Assembly (NCBI GenBank): GCA_017499595.2
Contig: CM039007.1
Coordinates: 992,001 to 1,056,000, forward strand
Source of the DNA: Psilocybe cubensis
Lineage: Eukaryota
Length of the DNA: 64,000 nt
Reading direction: 5' to 3'
The translations under genes were made by a program, and so were the position numbers. How positions within the stretch are numbered: position 1 is the stretch's first letter; the number at the start of each line of letters is the position of its first letter. Under the pieces are notes generated by a model, which was not told the origin of the DNA, searched no databases, and saw only the letters and a list, made by a program, of their open reading frames with translations. Below are positions 6,885 through 42,803 of the stretch, in pieces.

Positions 6885-7471
6885 GGTGGTGGTTAGAGAC
6901 TGAGCATAACCAGCGCCAAATTTCATATCTATATAAGGAGGAGACACGGTGGCACGTCCTTGGCAGTATGGCCATTGACATAGCTTGTTTGTGTCCTGTT
7001 GATGGCCTGAAAGGGCCTGAATCTTGAGTTGAACATCATTTATGCGCTTTGATATGTCCAAAGGGCTGTCGATATTTTTGCAAGCTAGATCCAATGCTCA
7101 CCTCTAATGTCCAGGGCATCGTCCCTTTGGTTTACCAAACATATCCGGATCCCTGATCAATACTGGGGGGGAGGCTAGAAAGCACAATTTCCATCTAACA
7201 AGTAAATCTTCGGAATGGTGAATAAGATTATTAGTAGTTCTTGAGGGAATTCTGAGGAAAGGGCTTTACAAAGGGGATCAAGCAAGGTCGAAGGGAGGTG
7301 CGTCTTTCAAGTTGTTCAGATCCTTCAGATGAACACGGCTGATCGTATCACGGCACTGAGTCGGCAAGCGGACATATCCGACTATAAGTACAACTTTAAG
7401 AAGAGTCGTTGGCAAGAACTTGCAAGAAGGGTGTATGTATTATAGAAGTGCATTTTTTATCAGCCAATCTT

Positions 7472-10701: not shown

Positions 10702-11167
10702 AGTATATGTTTGTGGGCCTCGATCTTGTTATGCACGACGTTACCATAAACCTTAGACGTCAAGGTGGAGTTTCCAATACCCCATGGCTCGAGCCTGATA
10801 CCCAATTTTTTCCACCACGACTCCGCTTTGCGAACCCGCAATTCGAACGGGTTATACGATTATTTAGTCGAGTGATCTTGTGATTATCGATGTACAGGAG
10901 GATCAATGTTGATGCAATGTCGATGTTTGAGGAAAAGACAAGATATTTGAAGGTAAAAGAATGTCACCCTGAGTACCGGTTATCGAACACGTCAACCCTA
11001 TCCTAAGGCACGTGATTCAGGAAAAATAGTTTCGCGCTTTGGAAACGCGAAAGGGAAGTATGGGCTTGACGATCCTTCCGAGTTATACACACAAATATAT
11101 ATATTTAAGACAACATCGCATCTAAATGAGCTACTATTAGAACTATTCAAAATTTGAAAAACATAAA

Positions 11168-17100: not shown

Positions 17101-17979
17101 TCTTCAAGCGTAGTATTTGTTCCCTATTGTTCAGATGAGCTCCGAGTCAATAGAGAGAATATGGAATCAACGTACCCGTTTAACCAAGGGGTAAACCCAC
17201 TTGAAAGTAATCCATCCCCACAGGTTAGTGTAGTCCTCCGGCGAGACAGAATGCCCCTATGGAAAGTTAGAGAAAGACACGCCTGCCACATATAAACCAC
17301 GTACAATTTCCTTAGGATCAACGCGGTTGCTCGGGAGTGCCAAAGGTATTGTGACAACTACAGACAATAGGAGTATGAGGGAAAGTAAATTGGTGAGCAT
17401 ACCAAGCAGGGCAAGATTAGATGGAGGCGGGGCCCCTAAGACACGGTTATCGAATAAAGCTCCGCCAAATTGAAGGATTGAGGTGAATAGCAGGATTAAA
17501 TACAATGTGAACATGTCGGCGGGGCCGGTCGCTGGCGGAATAACGATGGGTCGGACGACGGTGTACATCCAAGCAAAAGCTACAAGGAATGAAGCCACTC
17601 CTGCCCATATATCCGTTGTATCATTGTATATGAGGAATGAGCCATGTGCGACCCAGCAGAAACACTGCACGATTCCTACGAATACAAATACCACAGTGCG
17701 CCAAAGGGGGGCGATATGGGACACTTCCAACACAATCTCCGTGTCGTCTCCATCAAAACCTTTCTCTCCGGTGATATCAATGGCCTCCGCTTCATGTAAC
17801 GTCAGGTAAGTCTTGAATGGCGCGCCTAGAAATCGTAGTATCCGTCGGGCAGGTTGTGGTAGGGGTATAGTCGATAAGCACAAAGCGAAAACGAAGACTG
17901 CTGGAAGAAATGCGCTCCATGATAGTCGTACGCATTGACTGCTAAAGTCTAATGGGCCATGGTCCTCACAAAGGCCCAT
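11168..17979 (-). CDS. Full-length ABCC/MRP-family ABC transporter (YBT1/BPT1-like), multi-exon
   Basis: N-terminal TM extension (MGLCEDHG...), TMD1, NBD1 ([27 protein letters not shown]), TMD2, NBD2 ([24 protein letters not shown]); stop TGA at 11168-11170; many short introns. Confidence 0.95.
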
Positions 17980-18418
17980 ATCGCGTCGAAAACCCAAAGA
18001 TATAGCTGTGGTAGACGGTTGCGAAGGATGCAATCGAATTGGGTTAGGTTAGCTTGGCAACTTACTTAGTGAAAAGATAAAACTATTAATTAATTAATTA
18101 ATTAATTACATAAGTATATAGCAGTATTGTTGAATCGGAGATCAAAACTGGAATGAACAGTTACACGAATGGAACACAACCTTCAAAAGTTGTTCAAAAG
18201 CTCAACCACGGAACCTAAAGTTCTTGATCTTAAACTGCTGCTCGTTATTTCTTCGTTGAAATTAGACTCTTATCTAAACATATCTACGCGAAACGTGAGT
18301 AATGAGTATGTAAGTAGTAAAATTTCAAGCCAATTTGCTGCTGATGCTCTTGAAGTTCCAGATTGAAATGGATTGTTCACACAAGTCACTTGCTCACAAA
18401 TACCAACGTTGAATGCAA

Positions 18419-20022
18419 CTAATTTCTGGTCACTGCCTCCTGTGGGTGTACCACAGCACCCCCTGCAACTTCGCCAGTGATCAACGGGAACCAGGAAGTC
18501 CAGTTATGGGATGGCATGTATTCCGGAAATTCACGTCGAGCTTTCTCAAAATCCACAACAAAATCTTCCTTGGCCTGGTTTCTAGAGCTCCACCAGCTCC
18601 CTGTTCCTCTCTGCTTCGCCAGGACATCCAGTTCCATCATCACAATGCCCTCGTATTGAACAACGGCTGCGATACAAAAGTGGGGAGGAATTCCCGTCAT
18701 AGCGCTCGCGTTTTCTTCCACGCTCCATTCGGCTGAATCTTGACTGTGTCCACGGATGGACCCAGTGATGGTCATGGCATGTGCGAGTTGTTTCCTCACT
18801 TGCCACTCGGCGTTGACCTCTGGGCCCGTGTTAAATCCACCCACGCTGAACTGAGCTGGGATACTGAAACTATACTTCCTGTGGTGGCTTTCTTCGTTTT
18901 TTGCGCCTATGGCATATTTGGGCGCGACGTCAATCATCTTGGATGGATGTACTCCGCGGACAGATTTCAGTTTCCACTTGATCCGCAGAGCGTTGAACCG
19001 GCGGGAAGGAGATGGATGGCACTGGAACTGAAGAATCACCAAGCACCTGTGTGGCTCCAAAACCTGCACAGTCGACAACGATGCTGATAGATACGATGTC
19101 GATGACAACTCCTCGCTTATAATGACCGTTGGGGACCTGATAGGTTTTGGTCGATGCAACCCAGGTAAGAACCTCCAATGGTCCGAACTGTGTGTTTCCG
19201 TGGTCTCAGTTCTGGCTATAATCGCCTTGTCTTGTTGTTGCACTGCGTAACCTGGAGGCGGTCCTGGAGGTGGAGCGTATTGTGGTTCTCCAAATGTCGC
19301 AGGCTTGGACTCGTCAAATAAACCGGGATATCGATCTTGAACAATGCTAATCTGAGAGGTATTCAATTTTAATTCTTCTAAAAGTCGTGCCGCTCACCTC
19401 GTTGACATACGCCGCATACCGACTTCTATGCTCCTTCCATTTCTGCTCGAGAGACGTCAGCTGAAGGTTAGTAAATGCCTGCATGAGCATCTTCTCCCTC
19501 CGTAATTGTGAACTCGTTTCCATCGCCATTTCGTTCCACCAGGCAGCAAACTTTGTTAATATAATGCTGAACTGCTCCAAGTCCTGTACGCCTTTGGAAA
19601 GCAGTGTTTGCATCTCAGTAATACCGCAATCCCTTGTGGAATCTTTTTCGACCTTTATCTTATTTAGAAGCTACCGTTCTCATGAGATCAGCAAGGCCAC
19701 CTTTCAGACAAACATTGTACTTGCCTCTTCCACCGTCGTACGAACGTGAATAAAACCCAACTTTGCCTCTACTGCCTTGTCGTATCCTTGCTGTGTCGAT
19801 TCCTTCACTCCTTTCAAAAACGCAATTCGGTCTTCGGGAGTTGAATGCGGCATGAATTTAATAAGCGCTAAAGCATCATCGCAGATCGTGAATCCAACAT
19901 GAGCAGCATCGACGCTGGAACGAATGGCTTTGGAATAAATGATGGCTTGCTGTTACAATACCAAGTTGTGAGCTAAAGTGTAATGTTGAGGTAATGAACC
20001 ATGCTCATCTCGCATCATGATC
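18419..20022 (-). pseudogene. Gene A copy 1 (unique 3' end; exon 1 and start lost by deletions)
   Basis: 315-aa terminal exon differs from copies 2-4 at 12 substitutions within 18419-18710; 5' end has the deleted structure; frame is open from the internal Met (MPHSTPED). Confidence 0.75.
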
Positions 20023-20178
20023 TAGGAATCAAATCTTACGAGACAATGGGCGCTTAAGGGATAATTTCTCGTTATAATAGAGTATTAATAGTACAAAATT
20101 CGCACAGAAAGGGGACCCTGATGAAAAGAGATAGAAGTTCGAAACTGCCATTCCTCTTCCATCATCTAAACCGACCTG

Positions 20179-20240
20179 GTTTCTCCCCGCCCGAAGGCCG
20201 TGGACGGGGAGAAACGGCGTGAGGGGTTACGCCCTCACGC
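20179..20240. other. Two adjacent GC-rich hairpins (repeated at +7450 and +14900)
   Basis: GTTTCTCCCCG (20179-20189) / CGGGGAGAAAC (20205-20215); GCGTGAGGG (20217-20225) / CCCTCACGC (20232-20240). Confidence 0.9.
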
Positions 20241-20414
20241 ACTACCAACAAATGCGTTGAAGCACCAAAAGTCCTAAAATCGAGTTTGAGTGCAAGTTTT
20301 GATTTTCAGGAGATGGCTTACTGATCCAGACCCGAGACCTTTGCATACCTGCAAAATTGAACTTTTAACCCAAGGGTCGAGTTCGAGGCTGGGAACTCAC
20401 AAGGCGTGTTACAG

Positions 20415-21210
20415 AGTTTGCGGGACATTGAAAAATCAAATTTTCAACACGAGGGATGAGATCAAGGGCGTTCAGTTGCGGGACATCCGGAGAATGAGTT
20501 GCCATGAAGGTAGTTTGGTGGGAACTGGATTCTAAGTGAGCGGGAACCATGATTAACGGCAACAAGGTGTGTAATGACAAGTTTGCGGGACAGACACGAG
20601 GGGAAGACCGGTTGTTTGCTGCTGGAACCTGCACATTGGATGTAGCTGTTGCAAGACGAAGGTTCCCTGATGTCAAGTTTGCGGGACATCCATAAATCAA
20701 ATTTCTGACACGTGGGATAAGTGTCAGAGGTGGTTTAGCAGGAAACGAGTTCTAAGTGATAGAATCACATCAGTAACAATTGAAAGTCAACAAAGAAGGG
20801 AACCGACCAGGTAATCGAGGACAAGATCGCGGGACGTTCAAAAATCGAATTTTGAACACAAAGGGTAGACCTGTTGTTTTCTGTCGGAATCCGTAACATA
20901 TGGGTGGGTATGACAAGAGCGTGTGGGCGTCATGTTTGCGGGACATCCGAAAATCGAATTTTAAATCCAAGGGTTTGAAGGGCAAGTTGAAGTTTATGGT
21001 GTAAATCAAGTCTAAGTGAAGAAAATACATCAGTACATTGCTGCAATTCTATCAATGAAGACCACTGACCAGGTATTCCCGGACAAGTTCACGGGACGCT
21101 CAAAAATCAGATTTTGAATGCGAGGGGTGGGTGCATGTTGGTAGCGAGGGTTGTGGTTCACCGGACCTCGAAAAATCGAATTTTCATAGCGCGAGTAGAG
21201 TTCTAAGTGC
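20415..21210 (+). repeat. Degenerate motif array: (GTTT)GCGGGAC...AAAATCGAATTTT and TCTAAGTG
   Basis: GCGGGAC at 20420, 20478, 20585, 20681, 20829, 20938 (variants at 21091, 21161); TCTAAGTG at 20531, 20751, 21011, 21202. Confidence 0.85.
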
Positions 21211-23569
21211 ATGGATTGAATGAGTACACCACAGCTGCCCGGCACATAGCAAGAACCTACCTAGAGGTAGCAAGAAATGTCAACGTTGGTGCTGCGTATG
21301 ACATGGGAGTAGGGGTTAGAAGTGCATGGCACAGCCACGTACGTCTGGTGGAGAGGCATAAGGACGGGATACAATCCCTGGGGACTCGTAAATTCTGCTG
21401 CTGCTTATATGCATTTCTCCAAGGTCCCCGTCTCGCAGCCCTGACCGAGTCATTAGTCCCGGAACTTTGCACACACTCCATGATACGTGGCAACAGGCAT
21501 ATTCCGGCAGCAACAACTCGAAAATGTAATCGTTGATCGGGACTCGTTAATCTATTTTCATGCATTTGTTACTGCTCAACATAAACATATTGCATGTATT
21601 CCAAGGAGAAATCCCAAATTGTGCACTCAAAGCGATTTCCAACGGGCACTTTATATTGTTGACATCCACTTTTGTGTACATACATTTTCACGTTTAAAAC
21701 GCCCCGACTAACCTACATTTAGCACAGCTCAATCGAAAAGTCAGATCTAGGGACAGTTTCTTATCACAGACGCCCTCAAATCCAAGATACCGGGAGCACC
21801 CCTGCACCCCATCAATCGAGATTTTCCCCTTTCCAACTCGATAACGTACCTTGCCTGCAAGGTGAAGAATGTCGTCATTAGCAAGAGTTGTGCTCGGGTC
21901 GCCAAGGGGCTAGGGGTATAGAAGCAGCTGAGCTCGAGTGTATCCCTGAGTGCGCCCTAATTCTGGGAAAATACATTCACTTTCCGGATTTAAATCACGA
22001 ACAGTAACACGTCATAGCATGCCAGACGGCTCAAATGCACGGCTAATGGAATCATCGCACGCCCTGTGCGCATTTTGTGTCTGAAATTTACCCGTTTTTA
22101 ACATTTTAAATCTTCAAGTTGCTTGGTGACATATTTGCAGTCATGTAATGTTGCAGATTGGTGATATCATTGCGCCCAATCTACTCTGTAAACCCTTGCA
22201 GCGTGATTGACGTCGTTGAGGTGCTAGGTGTTAAAATAAGCGCCCATGTGTTCGACGTCTGTATTGTTCATTTTCGGGTCACTTGTGGACAATCCGAGCA
22301 TTCGACACTTGTATTATACACTGTATGGCAATGTACCGAGCTCTAAACTATCGTCAAGTCAAATATACGGTCACCGGAAGTACGAAAACGCGGTTTGATT
22401 TAGTGTTGCTTTTGAATGCGGTCTCGCAGGTCCAGCATCCAACCAAACCGCTTGTCCCATCTCTCAATGGGGTTGGAATGCAAAGTTATATCCATCCAGA
22501 TTATCCGGTACAGTCAAATCATCTTCCATCCCGCACAAAGCATGCGACGTGGCACGGGTACTCTATAATCTTCAGGTACATTTCATCTCTATTACCGCAT
22601 TTTTAGGTCAATTTAACAGGTCTAGCGTATCTTAAAATACAATATCAACTTACATTACATCTTTGTTGCGATGTATCGTATCTGAATGGAGCAAAAAAAG
22701 GTTGATATTCCGGATATACACCATTTCTGCTTATTTCAATGGATTCCGGAGAAAGGTTTTGTATGTATCAGTGCAAATAAAATGCTCACTTTGACTCTCT
22801 TTGAAATGAAGTCCCTTTATATCCACACAGAAGCCGAACAAATACATACCTACGCTCCCAGTATGTACACAGCTCACATCGACCTCAAACGAGCAAAAAC
22901 ACACTCACCAAGCACACCTACACCTCCCCATCACACACACACCATTCCCAACGCACACCAAAACCAAACACCACAACCTCTCCAACCGGCACGCAACACG
23001 CGCACACACACACCCTCCCCAAATCCCTCGTTCGGGATACACAACCTCCAAACACCGCCCTTTCCCAACGCATCCCTGAACGAAAACCACGGGAAGAAGG
23101 CGTGTCGTAAGTCTCGTAAGCGCTAGCGGAGGTGCTAATGCAGATAATTTTTATTCTGGCCTTGGAAGCGCGTGGATGTTGAGAAGGTGACATTGGAGGA
23201 GGTGCCGGTGTGCATCGTGATAGGCGTGAATATGGGTTTTTTGCGGCGGTGTGGTTGTTGGGGTATTATAAGGGTCGATAGTTGTACAGTTTATTTGTGG
23301 TAGAGAGAATCTGAGGTTGAGAAAAGTAAGTGATGAGATACGAATCTGGTTCCGAAGAACACAATCACCTTCAATCGTGTCGATGTGCTAGTATATTCGT
23401 GTTGCCCTGTAGAATCCCATGCATTATCGCACTATAATACCAAATCAGGCCCATGAACACCCCAAAGAGAACATACCATTGCCCTCGAAAAGATTTCACA
23501 ACCACGATACCCACAACCAAAAACAACGCCTCCTCCTTCCGCTCTTCAAACTACACCCCGCTCACAACG

Positions 23570-24206
23570 CACCTGTTTCAAAACAATATAAATGCCGTAT
23601 ACAGAGTCCGTAAGCGTGTAAAATAGAACGCAACCGGCGTTCTCTGGATGCATTAAGGTAGCGAGCTCGCTGAGAGCAATCAATCTACTTGTATTATTTC
23701 CGGGCAGTTTTCTGCGTTTCTAATGAATGCAATAAGTACATTGTGCATTGCACCGGCCAAGAGGTAGAAGTGATACGTTACCTGGACATACCACAAACCG
23801 CATAACATCACAGAATCACACCAACAAGTTCCAGCTCGTCTCGGACATCCTATCCTCCTCCCCGGAATCGCGTACACCTCGCCGTTCAAAACGCAGCATT
23901 CAATCCGGTTCTTTGCGGTACTAGCACCATCAAATATCACTGTCGTAAGCAATTTAGGATCGAAGAATGTTATTGTTGACACTCGGGAGTTGCGGGCAGG
24001 TTGGATGGGGACGTACATTTGATTTGCGAGAAATTCAATGTGCAATTGAATTTACCCGCTTTCCAAGAATGCGACGTGTACAGACTCACAGAAAGGAGGT
24101 TAGTCCATAACGTACTGAGTAGGTCCCCGTGTGTCTGTTGGTAGAATGAAGACCCGAGAGCGAGGTGATCTGAATACAGAGATTTGCCAAGTTCTGGCAG
24201 CGACAT
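23570..24206 (-). CDS. Possible small Cys-rich hypothetical gene or relic inside the spacer (copies at +7450 and +14900)
   Basis: ORFs 23970-24206 and 23680-24045, plus a GTAACG...TTAG intron that continues the frame (LWYVQ|KRRKLPGNNTSRLIALSELATLMHPE...); no family recognised. Confidence 0.25.
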
Positions 24207-24496
24207 TTAGATTTTCACAAATCATGTCCTACGACGCACTGTACATGATCCAGAACTAGCAAGATTGGAATATCTCTGCGCTTACAATAGTCAGCCCGAA
24301 GACAAAATCCACACCTCTTCAATGGGGTCCACTGCATTCAATGGAATACCTACACACAGTGACTTGGAAAAACACCAAAAACGCAATCCGAACCACCTAT
24401 CTTTTGCTTACATACAACGGCGATGATGGCATATCGGTTATTGGACCTCACATGAAGCATATTTCGGAAGGAAAGAAGGCAACGTAAGTGGAAGGG

Positions 24497-25480
24497 TATA
24501 AAGTCAGGGTATGCCACGCTGGCTTTTCTTCAGCAACCCGCTCTTCCTGGCTTGGATTTCCTCTCCTCTCCTTTCCTCTCATCTCATTTCATTTCATACG
24601 GCCAACGCGAGTACTGCAGAGCAAAAGGTAAGCGTGCGGCAACGTTGAGCTGGGTTGTTGCTCACCGTGTTGTCACAGCGAAGCAACGCGAGTCTGCGTT
24701 GAAGACGGTGAGCAGTGGCCTGATATTTTGTCGCCCGAAGGACTCGCTGACGCGTTGTTTTCACTAGTGAAGGTGTGCGCTGGAATATGGTGTTGTGCGA
24801 AGGTCAGAATAAGGTCCCCTATCTTGATTTGAGGCATTACTCACTGTCTGGCAACAGGAGCGGTGTTGCACTAGTCGATGTCGATGTCTTGAGGTCAGGA
24901 TAACGTTCGGAACGCCCCCCATAGCGTCACCCCATCGTTGTAACCTCGCCGTTGAGTCGCAATGACACGCTGTTAGTCAGCGTTGACGCTGTGCTGGTCA
25001 ACGTCGAAGTCATAAGGTCAGGCTCCCATGTTTCGATGCGAAGCATTACTCACCGTTCAAAGACAGGGGTATCACACCCACCCTCACTCACGCGCATATA
25101 CACCAACCCCAACGTCCTAAAATCGATGGATTCCTAGTGGTCGAGTCGAGATTGCGCACTGTCAGTTAAGGGTGTTTAAGACAGGTCAGTGTATGTGCAG
25201 AGCGGAAGGAATGACAGGTGCTTACTTTGTGTTGCAGAGTCCCTAACAATGTACTGAGGTAAGAACATCATCTCTGGCCTCGTTAGAAGGATTACTCACC
25301 TTCCAATTACAGGACTGCGCCACGATGTGCACCAACGCCCACTATCGTCCTTCAAATGGATGGATCCCGAGTCGCAACGGCAGACGGACGGCGGATGTTG
25401 ATGGAAGTGAGCTGGAACAAAGTTAGGTGGGTGTGCGCAGGCGTCACAAGGTTGTCGGGGAGATGCAGTGGGAATGTGAC
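24497..25480 (+). ncRNA. Putative micro-exon spliced non-coding transcription unit (copies at +7450 and +14900)
   Basis: TATAAA at 24497, CT-rich tract, then regularly spaced GT..AG introns with branch sites: 24628-24678, 24708-24767, 24803-24857, 24894-24976, 25017-25066, 25185-25237, 25259-25312; most exons 21-47 nt; the spliced product has only short ORFs. Confidence 0.5.
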
Positions 25481-25868
25481 ACGGTCAGTTGAGGAGGCAG
25501 AGAGTTAGCTGTAAAGTATGACAGGTGCTTACCTTGGGTATCCATCGAAGGGAATCACGGGATGTGTCGAGCGGGATGAAGGCAGCGAGGAGCCGTCTGC
25601 GATGAGTTGGCTGAGTGAATGTTTGAAGTGCTTTGATCAAAGGCCAGGTTGTGGAAGCATTGGCTTGGCGTTGGTGGGTACATGTATGCGCATAGACAAG
25701 CTGTGTGGGGCGACAGGGAATGAATGAAACTAGACTCTTATCTAAACATTTCTACGCGAAACGAGTATGTAAGTAGTAAAATTTCAAGCCCAATTGCTGC
25801 TGATGCTGCAGATTGAAATGTATTGATCACACAAGTCACTTGCTCACAAACACCAACGTTGAATGCAA

Positions 25869-27472
25869 CTAATTTCTCGTCACTGCTTCCTGTGCGTGTA
25901 CCACAGCACCCCCTGCAACTTCCCCAGTGATCAACGGGAACCAGCAAGTCCAGTTGTGGGATGGCTTGTATTCCGGAAATTCACGTCGAGCTTTATCAAA
26001 GTCCACAACAAAATCCTCCTTGGCCTGGTTTCTAGAGCTCCACCAGCTCCCTGTTCCTCTCTGCTTCGCCAGGACTTCCAGTTCCATCATCACAATGCCC
26101 TCGTATTGAACAACGGCTGCGATACAAAAGTGGGGAGGAATTCCCGTCATAGCGCTCGCATTTTCTTCCACGCTCCATTCGGCTGAATCTTGACTGTGTC
26201 CACGGATGGACCCAGTGATGGTCATGGCATGTGCGAGTTGTTTCCTCACTTGCCACTCGGCGTTGACCTCTGGGCCCGTGTTAAATCCACCCACGCTGAA
26301 CTGAGCTGGGATACTGAAACTATACTTCCTGTGGTGGCTTTCTTCGTTTTTTGCGCCTATGGCATATTTGGGCGCGACGTCAATCATCTTGGATGGATGT
26401 ACTCCGCGGACAGATTTCAGTTTCCACTTGATCCGCAGAGCGTTGAACCGGCGGGAAGGAGATGGATGGCACTGGAACTGAAGAATCACCAAGCACCTGT
26501 GTGGCTCCAAAACCTGCACAGTCGACAACGATGCTGATAGATACGATGTCGATGACAACTCCTCGCTTATAATGACCGTTGGGGACCTGATAGGTTTTGG
26601 TCGATGCAACCCAGGTAAGAACCTCCAATGGTCCGAACTGTGTGTTTCCGTGGTCTCAGTTCTGGCTATAATCGCCTTGTCTTGTTGTTGCACTGCGTAA
26701 CCTGGAGGCGGTCCTGGAGGTGGAGCGTATTGTGGTTCTCCAAATGTCGCAGGCTTGGACTCGTCAAATAAACCGGGATATCGATCTTGAACAATGCTAA
26801 TCTGAGAGGTATTCAATTTTAATTCTTCTAAAAGTCGTGCCGCTCACCTCGTTGACATACGCCGCATACCGACTTCTATGCTCCTTCCATTTCTGCTCGA
26901 GAGACGTCAGCTGAAGGTTAGTAAATGCCTGCATGAGCATCTTCTCCCTCCGTAATTGTGAACTCGTTTCCATCGCCATTTCGTTCCACCAGGCAGCAAA
27001 CTTTGTTAATATAATGCTGAACTGCTCCAAGTCCTGTACGCCTTTGGAAAGCAGTGTTTGCATCTCAGTAATACCGCAATCCCTTGTGGAATCTTTTTCG
27101 ACCTTTATCTTATTTAGAAGCTACCGTTCTCATGAGATCAGCAAGGCCACCTTTCAGACAAACATTGTACTTGCCTCTTCCACCGTCGTACGAACGTGAA
27201 TAAAACCCAACTTTGCCTCTACTGCCTTGTCGTATCCTTGCTGTGTCGATTCCTTCACTCCTTTCAAAAACGCAATTCGGTCTTCGGGAGTTGAATGCGG
27301 CATGAATTTAATAAGCGCTAAAGCATCATCGCAGATCGTGAATCCAACATGAGCAGCATCGACGCTGGAACGAATGGCTTTGGAATAAATGATGGCTTGC
27401 TGTTACAATACCAAGTTGTGAGCTAAAGTGTAATGTTGAGGTAATGAACCATGCTCATCTCGCATCATGATC
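25869..27472 (-). pseudogene. Gene A copy 2 (5'-deleted)
   Basis: Appears identical to copy 3; lacks exon 1 and ATG; exons 2-4 open from the internal Met. Confidence 0.75.
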
Positions 27473-30400: not shown

Positions 30401-33318
30401 ACGCACACCAAAACCAAACACCACAACCTCTCCAACCGGCACGCAACACGCGCACACACACACCCTCCCCAAATCCCTCGTTCGGGATACACAACCTCCA
30501 AACACCGCCCTTTCCCAACGCATCCCTGAACGAAAACCACGGGAAGAAGGCGTGTCGTAAGTCTCGTAAGCGCTAGCGGAGGTGCTAATGCAGATAATTT
30601 TTATTCTGGCCTTGGAAGCGCGTGGATGTTGAGAAGGTGACATTGGAGGAGGTGCCGGTGTGCATCGTGATAGGCGTGAATATGGGTTTTTTGCGGCGGT
30701 GTGGTTGTTGGGGTATTATAAGGGTCGATAGTTGTACAGTTTATTTGTGGTAGAGAGAATCTGAGGTTGAGAAAAGTAAGTGATGAGATACGAATCTGGT
30801 TCCGAAGAACACAATCACCTTCAATCGTGTCGATGTGCTAGTATATTCGTGTTGCCCTGTAGAATCCCATGCATTATCGCACTATAATACCAAATCAGGC
30901 CCATGAACACCCCAAAGAGAACATACCATTGCCCTCGAAAAGATTTCACAACCACGATACCCACAACCAAAAACAACGCCTCCTCCTTCCGCTCTTCAAA
31001 CTACACCCCGCTCACAACGCACCTGTTTCAAAACAATATAAATGCCGTATACAGAGTCCGTAAGCGTGTAAAATAGAACGCAACCGGCGTTCTCTGGATG
31101 CATTAAGGTAGCGAGCTCGCTGAGAGCAATCAATCTACTTGTATTATTTCCGGGCAGTTTTCTGCGTTTCTAATGAATGCAATAAGTACATTGTGCATTG
31201 CACCGGCCAAGAGGTAGAAGTGATACGTTACCTGGACATACCACAAACCGCATAACATCACAGAATCACACCAACAAGTTCCAGCTCGTCTCGGACATCC
31301 TATCCTCCTCCCCGGAATCGCGTACACCTCGCCGTTCAAAACGCAGCATTCAATCCGGTTCTTTGCGGTACTAGCACCATCAAATATCACTGTCGTAAGC
31401 AATTTAGGATCGAAGAATGTTATTGTTGACACTCGGGAGTTGCGGGCAGGTTGGATGGGGACGTACATTTGATTTGCGAGAAATTCAATGTGCAATTGAA
31501 TTTACCCGCTTTCCAAGAATGCGACGTGTACAGACTCACAGAAAGGAGGTTAGTCCATAACGTACTGAGTAGGTCCCCGTGTGTCTGTTGGTAGAATGAA
31601 GACCCGAGAGCGAGGTGATCTGAATACAGAGATTTGCCAAGTTCTGGCAGCGACATTTAGATTTTCACAAATCATGTCCTACGACGCACTGTACATGATC
31701 CAGAACTAGCAAGATTGGAATATCTCTGCGCTTACAATAGTCAGCCCGAAGACAAAATCCACACCTCTTCAATGGGGTCCACTGCATTCAATGGAATACC
31801 TACACACAGTGACTTGGAAAAACACCAAAAACGCAATCCGAACCACCTATCTTTTGCTTACATACAACGGCGATGATGGCATATCGGTTATTGGACCTCA
31901 CATGAAGCATATTTCGGAAGGAAAGAAGGCAACGTAAGTGGAAGGGTATAAAGTCAGGGTATGCCACGCTGGCTTTTCTTCAGCAACCCGCTCTTCCTGG
32001 CTTGGATTTCCTCTCCTCTCCTTTCCTCTCATCTCATTTCATTTCATACGGCCAACGCGAGTACTGCAGAGCAAAAGGTAAGCGTGCGGCAACGTTGAGC
32101 TGGGTTGTTGCTCACCGTGTTGTCACAGCGAAGCAACGCGAGTCTGCGTTGAAGACGGTGAGCAGTGGCCTGATATTTTGTCGCCCGAAGGACTCGCTGA
32201 CGCGTTGTTTTCACTAGTGAAGGTGTGCGCTGGAATATGGTGTTGTGCGAAGGTCAGAATAAGGTCCCCTATCTTGATTTGAGGCATTACTCACTGTCTG
32301 GCAACAGGAGCGGTGTTGCACTAGTCGATGTCGATGTCTTGAGGTCAGGATAACGTTCGGAACGCCCCCCATAGCGTCACCCCATCGTTGTAACCTCGCC
32401 GTTGAGTCGCAATGACACGCTGTTAGTCAGCGTTGACGCTGTGCTGGTCAACGTCGAAGTCATAAGGTCAGGCTCCCATGTTTCGATGCGAAGCATTACT
32501 CACCGTTCAAAGACAGGGGTATCACACCCACCCTCACTCACGCGCATATACACCAACCCCAACGTCCTAAAATCGATGGATTCCTAGTGGTCGAGTCGAG
32601 ATTGCGCACTGTCAGTTAAGGGTGTTTAAGACAGGTCAGTGTATGTGCAGAGCGGAAGGAATGACAGGTGCTTACTTTGTGTTGCAGAGTCCCTAACAAT
32701 GTACTGAGGTAAGAACATCATCTCTGGCCTCGTTAGAAGGATTACTCACCTTCCAATTACAGGACTGCGCCACGATGTGCACCAACGCCCACTATCGTCC
32801 TTCAAATGGATGGATCCCGAGTCGCAACGGCAGACGGACGGCGGATGTTGATGGAAGTGAGCTGGAACAAAGTTAGGTGGGTGTGCGCAGGCGTCACAAG
32901 GTTGTCGGGGAGATGCAGTGGGAATGTGACACGGTCAGTTGAGGAGGCAGAGAGTTAGCTGTAAAGTATGACAGGTGCTTACCTTGGGTATCCATCGAAG
33001 GGAATCACGGGATGTGTCGAGCGGGATGAAGGCAGCGAGGAGCCGTCTGCGATGAGTTGGCTGAGTGAATGTTTGAAGTGCTTTGATCAAAGGCCAGGTT
33101 GTGGAAGCATTGGCTTGGCGTTGGTGGGTACATGTATGCGCATAGACAAGCTGTGTGGGGCGACAGGGAATGAATGAAACTAGACTCTTATCTAAACATT
33201 TCTACGCGAAACGAGTATGTAAGTAGTAAAATTTCAAGCCCAATTGCTGCTGATGCTGCAGATTGAAATGTATTGATCACACAAGTCACTTGCTCACAAA
33301 CACCAACGTTGAATGCAA

Positions 33319-34922
33319 CTAATTTCTCGTCACTGCTTCCTGTGCGTGTACCACAGCACCCCCTGCAACTTCCCCAGTGATCAACGGGAACCAGCAAGTC
33401 CAGTTGTGGGATGGCTTGTATTCCGGAAATTCACGTCGAGCTTTATCAAAGTCCACAACAAAATCCTCCTTGGCCTGGTTTCTAGAGCTCCACCAGCTCC
33501 CTGTTCCTCTCTGCTTCGCCAGGACTTCCAGTTCCATCATCACAATGCCCTCGTATTGAACAACGGCTGCGATACAAAAGTGGGGAGGAATTCCCGTCAT
33601 AGCGCTCGCATTTTCTTCCACGCTCCATTCGGCTGAATCTTGACTGTGTCCACGGATGGACCCAGTGATGGTCATGGCATGTGCGAGTTGTTTCCTCACT
33701 TGCCACTCGGCGTTGACCTCTGGGCCCGTGTTAAATCCACCCACGCTGAACTGAGCTGGGATACTGAAACTATACTTCCTGTGGTGGCTTTCTTCGTTTT
33801 TTGCGCCTATGGCATATTTGGGCGCGACGTCAATCATCTTGGATGGATGTACTCCGCGGACAGATTTCAGTTTCCACTTGATCCGCAGAGCGTTGAACCG
33901 GCGGGAAGGAGATGGATGGCACTGGAACTGAAGAATCACCAAGCACCTGTGTGGCTCCAAAACCTGCACAGTCGACAACGATGCTGATAGATACGATGTC
34001 GATGACAACTCCTCGCTTATAATGACCGTTGGGGACCTGATAGGTTTTGGTCGATGCAACCCAGGTAAGAACCTCCAATGGTCCGAACTGTGTGTTTCCG
34101 TGGTCTCAGTTCTGGCTATAATCGCCTTGTCTTGTTGTTGCACTGCGTAACCTGGAGGCGGTCCTGGAGGTGGAGCGTATTGTGGTTCTCCAAATGTCGC
34201 AGGCTTGGACTCGTCAAATAAACCGGGATATCGATCTTGAACAATGCTAATCTGAGAGGTATTCAATTTTAATTCTTCTAAAAGTCGTGCCGCTCACCTC
34301 GTTGACATACGCCGCATACCGACTTCTATGCTCCTTCCATTTCTGCTCGAGAGACGTCAGCTGAAGGTTAGTAAATGCCTGCATGAGCATCTTCTCCCTC
34401 CGTAATTGTGAACTCGTTTCCATCGCCATTTCGTTCCACCAGGCAGCAAACTTTGTTAATATAATGCTGAACTGCTCCAAGTCCTGTACGCCTTTGGAAA
34501 GCAGTGTTTGCATCTCAGTAATACCGCAATCCCTTGTGGAATCTTTTTCGACCTTTATCTTATTTAGAAGCTACCGTTCTCATGAGATCAGCAAGGCCAC
34601 CTTTCAGACAAACATTGTACTTGCCTCTTCCACCGTCGTACGAACGTGAATAAAACCCAACTTTGCCTCTACTGCCTTGTCGTATCCTTGCTGTGTCGAT
34701 TCCTTCACTCCTTTCAAAAACGCAATTCGGTCTTCGGGAGTTGAATGCGGCATGAATTTAATAAGCGCTAAAGCATCATCGCAGATCGTGAATCCAACAT
34801 GAGCAGCATCGACGCTGGAACGAATGGCTTTGGAATAAATGATGGCTTGCTGTTACAATACCAAGTTGTGAGCTAAAGTGTAATGTTGAGGTAATGAACC
34901 ATGCTCATCTCGCATCATGATC
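33319..34922 (-). pseudogene. Gene A copy 3 (5'-deleted)
   Basis: Appears identical to copy 2. Confidence 0.75.
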
Positions 34923-37900
34923 TAGGAATCAAATCTTACGAGACAATGGGCGCTTAAGGGATAATTTCTCGTTATAATAGAGTATTAATAGTACAAAATT
35001 CGCACAGAAAGGGGACCCTGATGAAAAGAGATAGAAGTTCGAAACTGCCATTCCTCTTCCATCATCTAAACCGACCTGGTTTCTCCCCGCCCGAAGGCCG
35101 TGGACGGGGAGAAACGGCGTGAGGGGTTACGCCCTCACGCACTACCAACAAATGCGTTGAAGCACCAAAAGTCCTAAAATCGAGTTTGAGTGCAAGTTTT
35201 GATTTTCAGGAGATGGCTTACTGATCCAGACCCGAGACCTTTGCATACCTGCAAAATTGAACTTTTAACCCAAGGGTCGAGTTCGAGGCTGGGAACTCAC
35301 AAGGCGTGTTACAGAGTTTGCGGGACATTGAAAAATCAAATTTTCAACACGAGGGATGAGATCAAGGGCGTTCAGTTGCGGGACATCCGGAGAATGAGTT
35401 GCCATGAAGGTAGTTTGGTGGGAACTGGATTCTAAGTGAGCGGGAACCATGATTAACGGCAACAAGGTGTGTAATGACAAGTTTGCGGGACAGACACGAG
35501 GGGAAGACCGGTTGTTTGCTGCTGGAACCTGCACATTGGATGTAGCTGTTGCAAGACGAAGGTTCCCTGATGTCAAGTTTGCGGGACATCCATAAATCAA
35601 ATTTCTGACACGTGGGATAAGTGTCAGAGGTGGTTTAGCAGGAAACGAGTTCTAAGTGATAGAATCACATCAGTAACAATTGAAAGTCAACAAAGAAGGG
35701 AACCGACCAGGTAATCGAGGACAAGATCGCGGGACGTTCAAAAATCGAATTTTGAACACAAAGGGTAGACCTGTTGTTTTCTGTCGGAATCCGTAACATA
35801 TGGGTGGGTATGACAAGAGCGTGTGGGCGTCATGTTTGCGGGACATCCGAAAATCGAATTTTAAATCCAAGGGTTTGAAGGGCAAGTTGAAGTTTATGGT
35901 GTAAATCAAGTCTAAGTGAAGAAAATACATCAGTACATTGCTGCAATTCTATCAATGAAGACCACTGACCAGGTATTCCCGGACAAGTTCACGGGACGCT
36001 CAAAAATCAGATTTTGAATGCGAGGGGTGGGTGCATGTTGGTAGCGAGGGTTGTGGTTCACCGGACCTCGAAAAATCGAATTTTCATAGCGCGAGTAGAG
36101 TTCTAAGTGCATGGATTGAATGAGTACACCACAGCTGCCCGGCACATAGCAAGAACCTACCTAGAGGTAGCAAGAAATGTCAACGTTGGTGCTGCGTATG
36201 ACATGGGAGTAGGGGTTAGAAGTGCATGGCACAGCCACGTACGTCTGGTGGAGAGGCATAAGGACGGGATACAATCCCTGGGGACTCGTAAATTCTGCTG
36301 CTGCTTATATGCATTTCTCCAAGGTCCCCGTCTCGCAGCCCTGACCGAGTCATTAGTCCCGGAACTTTGCACACACTCCATGATACGTGGCAACAGGCAT
36401 ATTCCGGCAGCAACAACTCGAAAATGTAATCGTTGATCGGGACTCGTTAATCTATTTTCATGCATTTGTTACTGCTCAACATAAACATATTGCATGTATT
36501 CCAAGGAGAAATCCCAAATTGTGCACTCAAAGCGATTTCCAACGGGCACTTTATATTGTTGACATCCACTTTTGTGTACATACATTTTCACGTTTAAAAC
36601 GCCCCGACTAACCTACATTTAGCACAGCTCAATCGAAAAGTCAGATCTAGGGACAGTTTCTTATCACAGACGCCCTCAAATCCAAGATACCGGGAGCACC
36701 CCTGCACCCCATCAATCGAGATTTTCCCCTTTCCAACTCGATAACGTACCTTGCCTGCAAGGTGAAGAATGTCGTCATTAGCAAGAGTTGTGCTCGGGTC
36801 GCCAAGGGGCTAGGGGTATAGAAGCAGCTGAGCTCGAGTGTATCCCTGAGTGCGCCCTAATTCTGGGAAAATACATTCACTTTCCGGATTTAAATCACGA
36901 ACAGTAACACGTCATAGCATGCCAGACGGCTCAAATGCACGGCTAATGGAATCATCGCACGCCCTGTGCGCATTTTGTGTCTGAAATTTACCCGTTTTTA
37001 ACATTTTAAATCTTCAAGTTGCTTGGTGACATATTTGCAGTCATGTAATGTTGCAGATTGGTGATATCATTGCGCCCAATCTACTCTGTAAACCCTTGCA
37101 GCGTGATTGACGTCGTTGAGGTGCTAGGTGTTAAAATAAGCGCCCATGTGTTCGACGTCTGTATTGTTCATTTTCGGGTCACTTGTGGACAATCCGAGCA
37201 TTCGACACTTGTATTATACACTGTATGGCAATGTACCGAGCTCTAAACTATCGTCAAGTCAAATATACGGTCACCGGAAGTACGAAAACGCGGTTTGATT
37301 TAGTGTTGCTTTTGAATGCGGTCTCGCAGGTCCAGCATCCAACCAAACCGCTTGTCCCATCTCTCAATGGGGTTGGAATGCAAAGTTATATCCATCCAGA
37401 TTATCCGGTACAGTCAAATCATCTTCCATCCCGCACAAAGCATGCGACGTGGCACGGGTACTCTATAATCTTCAGGTACATTTCATCTCTATTACCGCAT
37501 TTTTAGGTCAATTTAACAGGTCTAGCGTATCTTAAAATACAATATCAACTTACATTACATCTTTGTTGCGATGTATCGTATCTGAATGGAGCAAAAAAAG
37601 GTTGATATTCCGGATATACACCATTTCTGCTTATTTCAATGGATTCCGGAGAAAGGTTTTGTATGTATCAGTGCAAATAAAATGCTCACTTTGACTCTCT
37701 TTGAAATGAAGTCCCTTTATATCCACACAGAAGCCGAACAAATACATACCTACGCTCCCAGTATGTACACAGCTCACATCGACCTCAAACGAGCAAAAAC
37801 ACACTCACCAAGCACACCTACACCTCCCCATCACACACACACCATTCCCAACGCACACCAAAACCAAACACCACAACCTCTCCAACCGGCACGCAACACG

Positions 37901-40768
37901 CGCACACACACACCCTCCCCAAATCCCTCGTTCGGGATACACAACCTCCAAACACCGCCCTTTCCCAACGCATCCCTGAACGAAAACCACGGGAAGAAGG
38001 CGTGTCGTAAGTCTCGTAAGCGCTAGCGGAGGTGCTAATGCAGATAATTTTTATTCTGGCCTTGGAAGCGCGTGGATGTTGAGAAGGTGACATTGGAGGA
38101 GGTGCCGGTGTGCATCGTGATAGGCGTGAATATGGGTTTTTTGCGGCGGTGTGGTTGTTGGGGTATTATAAGGGTCGATAGTTGTACAGTTTATTTGTGG
38201 TAGAGAGAATCTGAGGTTGAGAAAAGTAAGTGATGAGATACGAATCTGGTTCCGAAGAACACAATCACCTTCAATCGTGTCGATGTGCTAGTATATTCGT
38301 GTTGCCCTGTAGAATCCCATGCATTATCGCACTATAATACCAAATCAGGCCCATGAACACCCCAAAGAGAACATACCATTGCCCTCGAAAAGATTTCACA
38401 ACCACGATACCCACAACCAAAAACAACGCCTCCTCCTTCCGCTCTTCAAACTACACCCCGCTCACAACGCACCTGTTTCAAAACAATATAAATGCCGTAT
38501 ACAGAGTCCGTAAGCGTGTAAAATAGAACGCAACCGGCGTTCTCTGGATGCATTAAGGTAGCGAGCTCGCTGAGAGCAATCAATCTACTTGTATTATTTC
38601 CGGGCAGTTTTCTGCGTTTCTAATGAATGCAATAAGTACATTGTGCATTGCACCGGCCAAGAGGTAGAAGTGATACGTTACCTGGACATACCACAAACCG
38701 CATAACATCACAGAATCACACCAACAAGTTCCAGCTCGTCTCGGACATCCTATCCTCCTCCCCGGAATCGCGTACACCTCGCCGTTCAAAACGCAGCATT
38801 CAATCCGGTTCTTTGCGGTACTAGCACCATCAAATATCACTGTCGTAAGCAATTTAGGATCGAAGAATGTTATTGTTGACACTCGGGAGTTGCGGGCAGG
38901 TTGGATGGGGACGTACATTTGATTTGCGAGAAATTCAATGTGCAATTGAATTTACCCGCTTTCCAAGAATGCGACGTGTACAGACTCACAGAAAGGAGGT
39001 TAGTCCATAACGTACTGAGTAGGTCCCCGTGTGTCTGTTGGTAGAATGAAGACCCGAGAGCGAGGTGATCTGAATACAGAGATTTGCCAAGTTCTGGCAG
39101 CGACATTTAGATTTTCACAAATCATGTCCTACGACGCACTGTACATGATCCAGAACTAGCAAGATTGGAATATCTCTGCGCTTACAATAGTCAGCCCGAA
39201 GACAAAATCCACACCTCTTCAATGGGGTCCACTGCATTCAATGGAATACCTACACACAGTGACTTGGAAAAACACCAAAAACGCAATCCGAACCACCTAT
39301 CTTTTGCTTACATACAACGGCGATGATGGCATATCGGTTATTGGACCTCACATGAAGCATATTTCGGAAGGAAAGAAGGCAACGTAAGTGGAAGGGTATA
39401 AAGTCAGGGTATGCCACGCTGGCTTTTCTTCAGCAACCCGCTCTTCCTGGCTTGGATTTCCTCTCCTCTCCTTTCCTCTCATCTCATTTCATTTCATACG
39501 GCCAACGCGAGTACTGCAGAGCAAAAGGTAAGCGTGCGGCAACGTTGAGCTGGGTTGTTGCTCACCGTGTTGTCACAGCGAAGCAACGCGAGTCTGCGTT
39601 GAAGACGGTGAGCAGTGGCCTGATATTTTGTCGCCCGAAGGACTCGCTGACGCGTTGTTTTCACTAGTGAAGGTGTGCGCTGGAATATGGTGTTGTGCGA
39701 AGGTCAGAATAAGGTCCCCTATCTTGATTTGAGGCATTACTCACTGTCTGGCAACAGGAGCGGTGTTGCACTAGTCGATGTCGATGTCTTGAGGTCAGGA
39801 TAACGTTCGGAACGCCCCCCATAGCGTCACCCCATCGTTGTAACCTCGCCGTTGAGTCGCAATGACACGCTGTTAGTCAGCGTTGACGCTGTGCTGGTCA
39901 ACGTCGAAGTCATAAGGTCAGGCTCCCATGTTTCGATGCGAAGCATTACTCACCGTTCAAAGACAGGGGTATCACACCCACCCTCACTCACGCGCATATA
40001 CACCAACCCCAACGTCCTAAAATCGATGGATTCCTAGTGGTCGAGTCGAGATTGCGCACTGTCAGTTAAGGGTGTTTAAGACAGGTCAGTGTATGTGCAG
40101 AGCGGAAGGAATGACAGGTGCTTACTTTGTGTTGCAGAGTCCCTAACAATGTACTGAGGTAAGAACATCATCTCTGGCCTCGTTAGAAGGATTACTCACC
40201 TTCCAATTACAGGACTGCGCCACGATGTGCACCAACGCCCACTATCGTCCTTCAAATGGATGGATCCCGAGTCGCAACGGCAGACGGACGGCGGATGTTG
40301 ATGGAAGTGAGCTGGAACAAAGTTAGGTGGGTGTGCGCAGGCGTCACAAGGTTGTCGGGGAGATGCAGTGGGAATGTGACACGGTCAGTTGAGGAGGCAG
40401 AGAGTTAGCTGTAAAGTATGACAGGTGCTTACCTTGGGTATCCATCGAAGGGAATCACGGGATGTGTCGAGCGGGATGAAGGCAGCGAGGAGCCGTCTGC
40501 GATGAGTTGGCTGAGTGAATGTTTGAAGTGCTTTGATCAAAGGCCAGGTTGTGGAAGCATTGGCTTGGCGTTGGTGGGTACATGTATGCGCATAGACAAG
40601 CTGTGTGGGGCGACAGGGAATGAATGAAACTAGACTCTTATCTAAACATTTCTACGCGAAACGAGTATGTAAGTAGTAAAATTTCAAGCCCAATTGCTGC
40701 TGATGCTGCAGATTGAAATGTATTGATCACACAAGTCACTTGCTCACAAACACCAACGTTGAATGCAA

Positions 40769-42518
40769 CTAATTTCTCGTCACTGCTTCCTGTGCGTGTA
40801 CCACAGCACCCCCTGCAACTTCCCCAGTGATCAACGGGAACCAGCAAGTCCAGTTGTGGGATGGCTTGTATTCCGGAAATTCACGTCGAGCTTTATCAAA
40901 GTCCACAACAAAATCCTCCTTGGCCTGGTTTCTAGAGCTCCACCAGCTCCCTGTTCCTCTCTGCTTCGCCAGGACTTCCAGTTCCATCATCACAATGCCC
41001 TCGTATTGAACAACGGCTGCGATACAAAAGTGGGGAGGAATTCCCGTCATAGCGCTCGCATTTTCTTCCACGCTCCATTCGGCTGAATCTTGACTGTGTC
41101 CACGGATGGACCCAGTGATGGTCATGGCATGTGCGAGTTGTTTCCTCACTTGCCACTCGGCGTTGACCTCTGGGCCCGTGTTAAATCCACCCACGCTGAA
41201 CTGAGCTGGGATACTGAAACTATACTTCCTGTGGTGGCTTTCTTCGTTTTTTGCGCCTATGGCATATTTGGGCGCGACGTCAATCATCTTGGATGGATGT
41301 ACTCCGCGGACAGATTTCAGTTTCCACTTGATCCGCAGAGCGTTGAACCGGCGGGAAGGAGATGGATGGCACTGGAACTGAAGAATCACCAAGCACCTGT
41401 GTGGCTCCAAAACCTGCACAGTCGACAACGATGCTGATAGATACGATGTCGATGACAACTCCTCGCTTATAATGACCGTTGGGGACCTGATAGGTTTTGG
41501 TCGATGCAACCCAGGTAAGAACCTCCAATGGTCCGAACTGTGTGTTTCCGTGGTCTCAGTTCTGGCTATAATCGCCTTGTCTTGTTGTTGCACTGCGTAA
41601 CCTGGAGGCGGTCCTGGAGGTGGAGCGTATTGTGGTTCTCCAAATGTCGCAGGCTTGGACTCGTCAAATAAACCGGGATATCGATCTTGAACAATGCTAA
41701 TCTGAGAGGTATTCAATTTTAATTCTTCTAAAAGTCGTGCCGCTCACCTCGTTGACATACGCCGCATACCGACTTCTATGCTCCTTCCATTTCTGCTCGA
41801 GAGACGTCAGCTGAAGGTTAGTAAATGCCTGCATGAGCATCTTCTCCCTCCGTAATTGTGAACTCGTTTCCATCGCCATTTCGTTCCACCAGGCAGCAAA
41901 CTTTGTTAATATAATGCTGAACTGCTCCAAGTCCTGTACGCCCTTGGAAAGCAGTGTTTGCATCTCGGTAATACCGCAATCCCTTGTGGAATCTTTTTCG
42001 GCCTTTATCTTATTTAGAAGCTGCCGTTCTCATGAGATCAGAAAGGCCACCTTTCAGACAAACATTGTACTTGCCTCTTCCACCGTCGTACGAACGTGAA
42101 TAAAACCCAACTTTGCCTCTACTGCCTTGTCGTATCCTTGCTGTGTCAATTCCTTCACTCCTTTCAAAAACGCAATCCGGTCTTCGGGAGTTGAATGCGG
42201 CATGAATTTAATAAGCGCTAAAGCATCATCGCAGATCGTGAATCCAACATGAGCAGCATCGACACTGGAACGAATGGCTTTGGAATAAATGATGGCTTGG
42301 TTTTGCACATCTTTTACAATACCAAGTTGTGAGCTAAAGAAATAACATGTAATGTTGAGGTAACGATATGTAATGAACCATGCTTACAATTCCTTCATCT
42401 CGCACCATGGCATTATGATCTCTAAAGCCTTCTCTGTGCTTCGAGCTAGCGCCACGGTGTCGAAAAACTTGGCCGAATCAAGGAATGCGATGGCGGGGTC
42501 AGTTGAGTCTGTGCTCAT
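40769..42518 (-). CDS. Gene A intact copy: ~530-aa protein with N-terminal helical domain, PPPGPPPGY linker and C-terminal beta-rich domain
   Basis: ATG at 42518 (MSTDSTDPAIAF...), a 54-nt GT-AG intron, a GC-AG intron after TTVEE and a GT-AG intron after YVNE give one continuous frame into the terminal exon (...AEWSVEENASAMTGIPPHFCIAAVV...). Confidence 0.85.
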
Positions 42519-42803
42519 CGTTGTGATGCTTGTTGTGTGCTAGGAACGTTTGGGAGACAATTTGAGATCATATAAGAATCAAATGTTCAAATTCAAACGC
42601 CTCGCCTTCAGCATGAGGAATCCTCATGACGTTGGACATATCCATCTTATCTCAAGTCTTAATATATTCTCCAATCGATGGTAGATCAATATAAACCTAT
42701 CGAGCCGTGGAGGAAAAGAAGTAAGCTATCAATAAAGAGTGCACGTAACTACAGAACTAAGGGTTCGATTTTCAAATGATAAATAGAATGTACGACTAGC
42801 TGA

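Follow-up and report, generated by a model that had tools for sequence, protein, structure and literature searches.

A family of non-coding inserts between host-DNA repeats at six loci of the Psilocybe cubensis genome

The 64,000-nucleotide stretch of Psilocybe cubensis DNA analysed here (the window) contains a tandem array in which a non-coding insert, termed X, separates copies of a protein-coding gene (gene A), and the same architecture recurs around a shared motif at six loci of the genome. At the locus in the window there are empty alleles and the ends of the array are chimeric, and across the family the host repeats exhibit a divergence gradient and a deletion bias. Our preferred reading, to which we assign a probability of roughly 55%, is that X belongs to a non-coding element family that would carry its own homology arm and whose copy number would be set by recombination.

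The array and its native allele

In window coordinates, the parts of the array are as follows.

18257..18710, minus strand: native 3' end and UTR of gene A copy 1 (N3), like the insert-free allele wherever informative (20 of 20 sites)
18711..19592, 26161-27042, 33611-34492 and 41061-41942, minus strand: core of 882 bp, identical in all four window copies
19593..20023, 27043-27473 and 34493-34923, minus strand: element-side 5' end of gene A (D5), from comparison with the insert-free allele
20024..25724, 27474-33174 and 34924-40624, plus strand: insert X, 5.7 kb, three copies
25725..26160, 33175-33610 and 40625-41060, minus strand: element-side 3' end of gene A (D3), from comparison of the copies
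40769..42518, minus strand: gene A copy 4, the sole window copy with a native start
41943..42600, minus strand: native 5' end and upstream flank (N5), agreeing with the insert-free allele at each of 7 sites at which the internal copies differ

The three 7,450-bp units are identical letter for letter. In a self-comparison, identity at a lag of 7450 is unbroken over 18711-34492 (15,782 positions), equivalent to the span 18711-41942, which bears out the exact period that the original prediction had claimed from 18711 to 41942, and the identical core of about 880 bp that it had claimed for the four gene A copies measures 882 bp. Its description of the end copies is likewise precise: the substitutions number exactly 12 for copy 1, in 18419-18710, in addition to UTR indels (its UTR being longer), and exactly 8 for copy 4, in 41943-42264, copy 4 being free of the deletions. 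The change at 42177 is private to copy 4, that is, no internal-copy change, which leaves 7 of the 8.

The unit ends beside X carry 7 deletions of 8-11 bp each. D5 has 7 substitutions and five 8-11-bp deletions, the last three of which were called by eye from the comparison of copies, and has lost the start codon, and in D3 the coding part differs by 12 substitutions, of which 7 are synonymous and 5 are not, and the UTR has lost two pieces of 9 bp. The idea that the array is too young to have decayed thus holds for the amplification and fails for the unit, the ends of which are 2-4% off the native gene and bear the 7 deletions.

A single, insert-free copy of gene A is present on the same contig (G000:C10:540127-542108), in a second version of the region that is 96-99% identical and lies about 470-503 kb upstream; the gene A cluster comprises the four window copies and this fifth one. 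We infer from the sequence that the second segment is the other haplotype, the alternative being a segmental duplication. Copy 1 does not differ from the insert-free allele over 17000-18997 and agrees with it at every informative site on the left (20 of them), and copy 4 matches it at 7 of 7 sites on the right, a count that omits the row at 19952 as an alignment artefact beside a gap. Private sites number 1 in copy 4 and 22 in the insert-free allele, and the latter fits a rejoined gene, made of the left part of copy 1 and the right part of copy 4, with zero conflicting sites. The prediction that this joining rebuilds one native gene is hence matched by a real single-gene allele that agrees with both ends, and the X-free state it envisaged is present in the second segment of the contig as well as in two other runs (X13 and X14). 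That the ends match the insert-free allele indicates that the native state is one gene and that both X-touching ends are the odd ones out.

The core and the insert-free allele differ at 17 substitution sites in 18998-19425 and by a 12-bp indel. Neither the insert-free haplotype nor any X13 or X14 read has the base that the four window copies carry at 19076 and 19425, a pattern suggestive of a tract of conversion or gap repair, although a rare host allele would give the same picture. Gap-repair copying of the element core onto both end copies fits better than one clean crossover, since the single-crossover (Campbell-type) integration originally put forward accounts for the chimeric ends, but in its plain form leaves the identical 882-bp core unexplained. 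Circle integration and unequal exchange are reciprocal products of the same repeat recombination, and either may have produced the array. In addition, the mostly synonymous end changes, together with one 5' change shared with the empty alleles, indicate that the carried copy of gene A is a mosaic of allelic variation and erosion near the joints.

Presence and copy number in other strains

Among 14 runs, 12 contain part of the window interval 16000-25700, and in 7 at least half of its words are present; 4 of these 7 are flagged as possible sources, and the remainder (X5, X6 and X7) come from two studies. The detailed comparison took in four of the 14, X1 and X5 as contigs and X13 and X14 as raw reads, and left out the small-share runs X10-X12. 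X1 is itself flagged as a possible source.

Reads from X13 and X14 extend over the flank and gene A, but most of X has a depth of 0, which identifies empty alleles. The 9-bp deletion at 18295 occurs in 0/28 reads of X13 and 0/28 of X14, and at 19651 both runs have the internal-copy base (0/27 and 0/22 reads differ, respectively). Because insert-free alleles exist in these other strains, a fixed A-X-A' arrangement is excluded.

X1 and X5 each contain one contig that runs D5-X-D3 with 0 differences over 19920-25700, and the X-to-D3 joint is found in both; such a contig is compatible with both a circle and an integrated form. The depth of X versus the flank is 26.9 versus 50.8 in X1 and 11.1 versus 20.8 in X5, about 1.06 per haplotype, which hints at one X copy on one haplotype in these runs, although contig depth is no copy number. 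Across the material, X is present in 0, about 1 or 3 copies, the 3 in this assembly only and the value of about 1 from contig depth. The predicted threefold copy number is accordingly confirmed for this assembly only, contig depth in X1 and X5 hinting at about one copy, and the threefold array would be a recent, probably clone-specific expansion. The portrayal of the region as an 'accordion' locus is right in that copy number varies, but it is not a one-off gene accordion, because X belongs to a six-locus family of the same architecture.

X13, X14 and X5 also contain short X blocks with loose ends (around 20180-20216, 23101-23140 and 24376-24437), which appear to be related elements elsewhere, including in strains without X at this locus. 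A related copy with a variant second hairpin is likewise seen through loose ends in X13.

The insert and its family

Within X, the following features were recognised.

20114..20200, plus strand: family motif of about 90 bp, made of a GACCCTGA..AAAGAGATAGAAGTT box, a spacer and a TCTCCCCGCCCGAAGGCC box
20179..20240, plus strand: two adjacent hairpins, z -3.6 as DNA, strong in this subfamily only
20415..21200, plus strand: iterated GCGGGA(C/A)...AAAAATCGAATTT repeats, 6 copies of a 46-nt family, common to the C6, C7 and C9 members
21355..21381, plus strand: short conserved block GGCATAAGGACGGGATACAATCC, present in other members
23911..24136, no strand assigned: two short blocks (62 bp and 87 bp) that resemble, at 75-82%, a subtelomeric repeat found on C15, C10 and C4
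24497..24633, plus strand: promoter-like block with TATAAA at 24497, a CT tract at 24557-24580 and the first splice-donor-like site at 24628
24600..25724, no strand assigned: tract that is rich in splice-donor-like words, contains internal repeats and lacks a long frame

The motif begins 90 bp inside X. By DNA search, X as a whole is found at this locus only. A genome search for the hairpin box returned 18 matches (control 0), and one for the upstream box returned 29 (control 1), 28 of which lie within six loci; the remaining match, with a score of 14 bits, is without the second box, and no long repeat lies within 20 kb of it. In a leave-one-out motif profile, five members find the sixth at E 2e-9 to 1e-19, and the reversed sequence reaches at most 12.6 bits. 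The six loci are listed below.

This window: 3 copies, period 7,450
C9:2.10-2.15 Mb: 4 copies, period 11,049
C7:188-241 kb: 6 copies, period 7,837
C7:2.75-2.79 Mb: 4 copies, periods 9,932 and 9,942
C6:223-325 kb: 10 copies, mixed periods
C1:4.16 Mb: 1 copy

All six loci, the single-copy C1 included, have the order host repeat, insert, host repeat, and five of them are tandem arrays. The host repeats measure 1,628-2,408 bp at the six loci and end 60-160 bp ahead of the motif; at this locus the target repeat is 1,767 bp long and is present as one copy in the empty allele. A genome search covering two of the five other loci (C1 and C9) found the full repeat to be locus-specific. The contents of the repeats are unrelated, comprising a Ras-family gene (which we take to be rho1), a DUF4140/DUF4139 gene, part of a NADAR gene, gene A, and two repeats without a Pfam match. 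The inserts are 4-8 kb in size; longer collinear blocks of 60-80% identity are common to three members, and the member in this window shares short blocks only. The sister arrays can be taken as real DNA, because an intact Copia element, flanked by a 5-bp target duplication (GACAT), lies within one sister unit and two unit types alternate in another array.

Divergence within the host repeats is concentrated at their ends. When the first and last repeats are compared, pooled over five of the six loci (C6, which is more complex, was left out), the differences per 100 bp by repeat tenth are 5.8, 3.3, 1.5, 0.8, 0.9, 0.6, 1.6, 1.1, 1.0 and 3.3, a gradient that three loci show clearly and C7:2.75 Mb and C9 only weakly. 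Furthermore, among indels of at least 5 bp in the outer thirds, the insert side is the shorter one in 20 cases versus 2 (p=1e-4, with 2 mid-repeat indels set aside and the polarity anchored by an empty allele at this locus only), and the pieces lost on the insert side are 7-19 bp long.

A TATA-like box and a CT tract pointing into the next repeat are present in 6/6 members, and many splice-donor-like words are common to the inserts. In the window, the promoter-like block is directed into the next host repeat and is antisense to gene A; its TATA box and CT tract are consistent with a promoter role. The GCGGGA..AAAAATCGAATTT repeats were not seen in the C1 member. No coding gene was found in X, 4 window frames being without a Pfam match, nor in the sister inserts, in which the blocks conserved among three of them hold frame-breaking gaps. 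Similarly, no Rep gene was found and no RT-like frame was seen in the inserts.

The window interval 15000-47000 has 0 rRNA or Rfam matches and no tRNA match, and the sister arrays at 7 loci have 0 Rfam matches, on which grounds an rDNA spacer or other structured-RNA locus was rejected. The motif has no conserved fold across the family, with z below -3 in this window's copy alone, and a hammerhead or tRNA was discarded, and a guide-RNA scaffold disfavoured, for want of an Rfam or tRNA match and of a conserved fold. The long hairpin at 22880-23340 was dropped as a feature (z +1.2). The genome also holds a motif-less array with a 29,470-bp unit on C15; the subtelomeric 29.47-kb repeat was rejected as the parent of X, with which it has two short blocks in common and no motif.

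Gene A encodes a two-domain fungal hypothetical protein of 524 aa (P0007) with 292 relatives at E<=0.001, and protein matches place relatives in Galerina, Gymnopilus and Agrocybe. It has no match in Pfam, and a structural model with a pLDDT of 49 has none at E<=0.001 in Foldseek, where weak rows (beta-pore-former, arrestin and adaptor-ear, TM about 0.13) were discounted; the best protein atlas score of 0.78 is taken as a lead only. A dosage story in which gene A is the point of the array is unsupported, because other family members carry unrelated genes, and gene A is probably incidental to the array.

Formation of the arrays and relation to known systems

According to the preferred reading, X would be a member of an old non-coding element family, and each member would carry a 1.6-2.4-kb copy of host DNA from its own locus, joined just upstream of the conserved motif, X and the carried host copy together forming the functional unit. 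The match between the carried copy and the native site would allow homologous recombination to place the unit in an empty allele, to excise it in circular form or to multiply it in head-to-tail orientation, and the ends of the array would be left as native-left/element-right and element-left/native-right chimeras. The middle of the carried copy would be repeatedly converted to host alleles, and the X-adjacent ends would be sheltered and erode. A circle would form and re-integrate, the promoter-like block may be active, and the motif and the iterated repeats may function in origin, nick or break formation; candidate roles of the motif itself are an origin, a nick site or a fork barrier.

A more far-reaching version, which we offer only tentatively, is that these elements could be self-propagating nuclear gene minicircles of mushrooms, in which a constant non-coding core would be combined with one captured host segment as a homing arm. 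The core would provide an origin or break site, iterated binding sites and a strong promoter, and the minicircles would spread to empty alleles of their own locus in the dikaryon or in meiosis, amplify there and rarely jump by capturing a new arm, using host recombination and no encoded integrase.

Certain observations speak against the preferred reading. Arrays without the motif exist in the genome, and amplification may therefore be generic; X1 and X5 have about one copy by contig depth; and the divergence of the inner ends is partly ordinary allelic variation, as seen from the 19651 base in X13 and X14 and from the mostly synonymous changes.

A somewhat unlikely, although serious, alternative is a one-time insertion of X with a target duplication of about 2 kb, by a transposase or repair event, followed by passive unequal crossing-over as at yeast HXT6/HXT7. 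An A-X-A' haplotype would then persist and its outer halves would recombine with empty alleles, with no circle or drive. Such a history predicts the same chimeric ends and the same gradient, and it agrees with inner-end changes that are mostly synonymous and partly common to empty alleles, with about one copy in two strains (X1 and X5, by contig depth) and with the many unrelated arrays in the genome. However, pop-out to zero would be an absorbing state, yet the inserts have drifted to 60-80% identity in short blocks, 5/6 loci are amplified now, and an undescribed process making 1.6-2.4-kb duplications six times would still be required. In yeast, the HXT6 and HXT7 genes are direct repeats around a spacer, a hybrid gene is located on the HXT6/7 circle, and this circle is the proposed intermediate to the HXT6-HXT6/7-HXT7 amplification (PMC7430651). 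Hybrid internal copies between two parental end copies occur here as well, but the HXT6/7 spacer consists of ordinary DNA of the locus and the native state there has two genes, whereas here a single gene is native and the spacer is foreign and common to six unrelated loci. Amplification of this kind is in itself a familiar event, its copy number here being uncertain.

It is improbable that X is a non-autonomous Helitron2- or Replitron-like element, for which a Rep-helicase would nick the motif, read into the flank and produce rolling-circle tandem copies, as in the junction model of ToxB. In its favour, the hairpin word CCGAAGG resembles the ends of FoHeli, for which hairpin words of this type, tandem copies and joined-end amplicons are reported (PMC5148889), and iterated repeats adjoin the word; moreover, the genome contains intact Helitrons, with 22 Helitron_like_N matches, several in open frames of 1,958-2,808 aa. 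The ToxB-HLE of Pyrenophora tritici-repentis shows the same unit-junction-unit layout, with a non-coding junction between tandem host gene units that is absent after the last copy, and rolling circle and unequal crossover are proposed there, not functionally validated (10.1101/2025.11.13.688278). Against this, no motif match occurs at the 22 Helitron_like_N positions with up to 3 mismatches, Helitrons insert without target duplication, and no conserved second terminus was seen: no common word is present at the right junction in 5 loci, the left end alone being conserved. FoHeli has two defined termini, inserts between target bases and leaves joined flanks that restore the empty site (PMC5148889), whereas here there are one conserved end and a 2-kb target repeat, and X lacks the tested defining features of Helitrons, given the 1,767-bp target repeat and the absence of two conserved termini. 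ToxB-HLE, in what is accessible of its description, concerns one gene unit, in contrast to the 4-8-kb inserts, six loci and diverged chimeric repeats found here, where Helitron termini are not established.

We also doubt that the threefold array arose in assembly, by over-expansion of a real single A-X-A' locus or by the threading of extrachromosomal concatemer reads into the chromosome: the three units are letter-identical, the possible source X1 has about one copy by contig depth, and the contig seems to hold both haplotypes of the region, so that the assembly has oddities, but the repeats are only 1.7 kb and unit-spanning reads would be expected to resolve them, the sister arrays vary internally beyond what an assembler would invent, and the explanation bears on copy number alone and leaves the family untouched.

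Several other systems share single traits with the family. Integrase-independent Tf1 enters by Rad52-mediated homology and forms tandem copies (PMC11042837), but it is protein-coding and uses homology to existing element copies, whereas here the homology is to a carried host gene with its introns kept. Replitrons have flank-derived sequence at one end and variable target duplications, and have been likened to plasmid origins with iterated repeats (PMC10288648); their terminal repeats and flank carry-over are short, in contrast to the kilobases of host DNA found here. CUP1 eccDNA comes from a host gene array without a shared mobile insert, where transcription of a tandem repeat favours breakage and circle formation (PMC6890164), and the promoter-like block may act in a comparable way.

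An LTR, DIRS or Penelope-like element was rejected, as the repeats are locus-specific host DNA (C1 and C9) and no RT-like frame was seen; for the rho1 and DUF4139 genes, which lie in sense orientation, inner copies show no intron-sized deletions relative to the first copy. A TIR DNA transposon (CACTA or MITE) was rejected in that no inverted pair lies at the X ends among the 25 longest of 81 pairs. PF07282, representing Fanzor/TnpB (OMEGA), has no match in the genome in a search that ignored introns and for a domain that is short. The element family appears to fit no tested known class, its newness resting on the architecture in one genome. To our knowledge, no known transposon class routinely sits inside 2-kb duplications of its own target. 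The motif has 0 matches in metagenome and viral contigs, collections that are poor in mushroom DNA, and no description of this element family was found in the open literature, although subscription journals and supplements could hold one.

To conclude, the family suggests an undescribed kind of mobile DNA that would travel with a piece of a host gene and re-enter by recombination. If re-entry by homology is true, these elements would be natural site-specific gene amplifiers, perhaps nuclease-free drives, they would alter the dosage of the captured gene, rho1 included, and they would explain several arrays in the genome that otherwise resemble unrelated accidents. Should the elements prove to be passive, the recurrence of one architecture at six loci would still point to a mode of insertion not yet described. 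In either case, the motif offers a direct handle for finding members in other Agaricales and for testing origin, nicking and drive.

Gene A and its surroundings in the window

Gene A, which is copied four times around the non-coding insert X, encodes (window 40769-42518) a fusion of a helical N-terminal domain and a beta-rich C-terminal domain, and these two domains are mostly separate among its relatives. A fold search returned weak, non-significant rows, beta pore-formers among them. The array is bracketed by two ABC-transporter genes in opposite orientation (window 10000-17980 and 45587-52660), which share 63-73% identity in blocks, and a palindromic (TAAT)n microsatellite found on both haplotypes (window 18085-18108) separates gene A from the ABC gene. 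The window also holds two older tandem gene pairs, at 4504-6904 (80% identical) and 52826-58588 (73% identical); the latter looks like a pair of MFS transporters, and a Pfam search with one piece of it gave no match.

Large repeats in the assembly

On the window's own contig, G000:C10, ~455-577 kb is collinear with 958-1053 kb, the half that takes in the window, at 96-99% identity and an offset of 470-503 kb. This duplicate probably represents two haplotypes put into a single scaffold, and therefore gene counts in the region may be doubled. A near-exact three-fold tandem with a period of ~29,470 lies at G000:C15:40000-128000 (stretches L024-L032), on a subtelomeric contig where telomere repeats and Penelope-like RT elements abound. 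The ~90-bp motif of the insert family is absent from this tandem. Stretch L023 has a group I intron match (3581-3877).

Other family members and their joints

The heterogeneous array at G000:C6:223000-325000 (L127-L137) comprises ten copies, and its host repeat is a complete rho1-type GTPase gene; a 17-kb duplicate within it (99.99%) possibly reflects a join made in assembly. On C7, an intact Copia element (G000:C7:225037-229671, L078) with 182-bp LTRs, a 1,395-aa frame and a GACAT duplication lies within a single unit of the 7,837-bp array. The single-copy member on C1 adjoins a long inverted repeat (>2.2 kb, 98%; G000:C1:4181542-4190000). A 26-bp exact copy of repeat-interior sequence sits at a repeat-insert joint (G000:C1:4161502-4161527), and other such joints carry shorter shards resembling flank, which suggests template switching.
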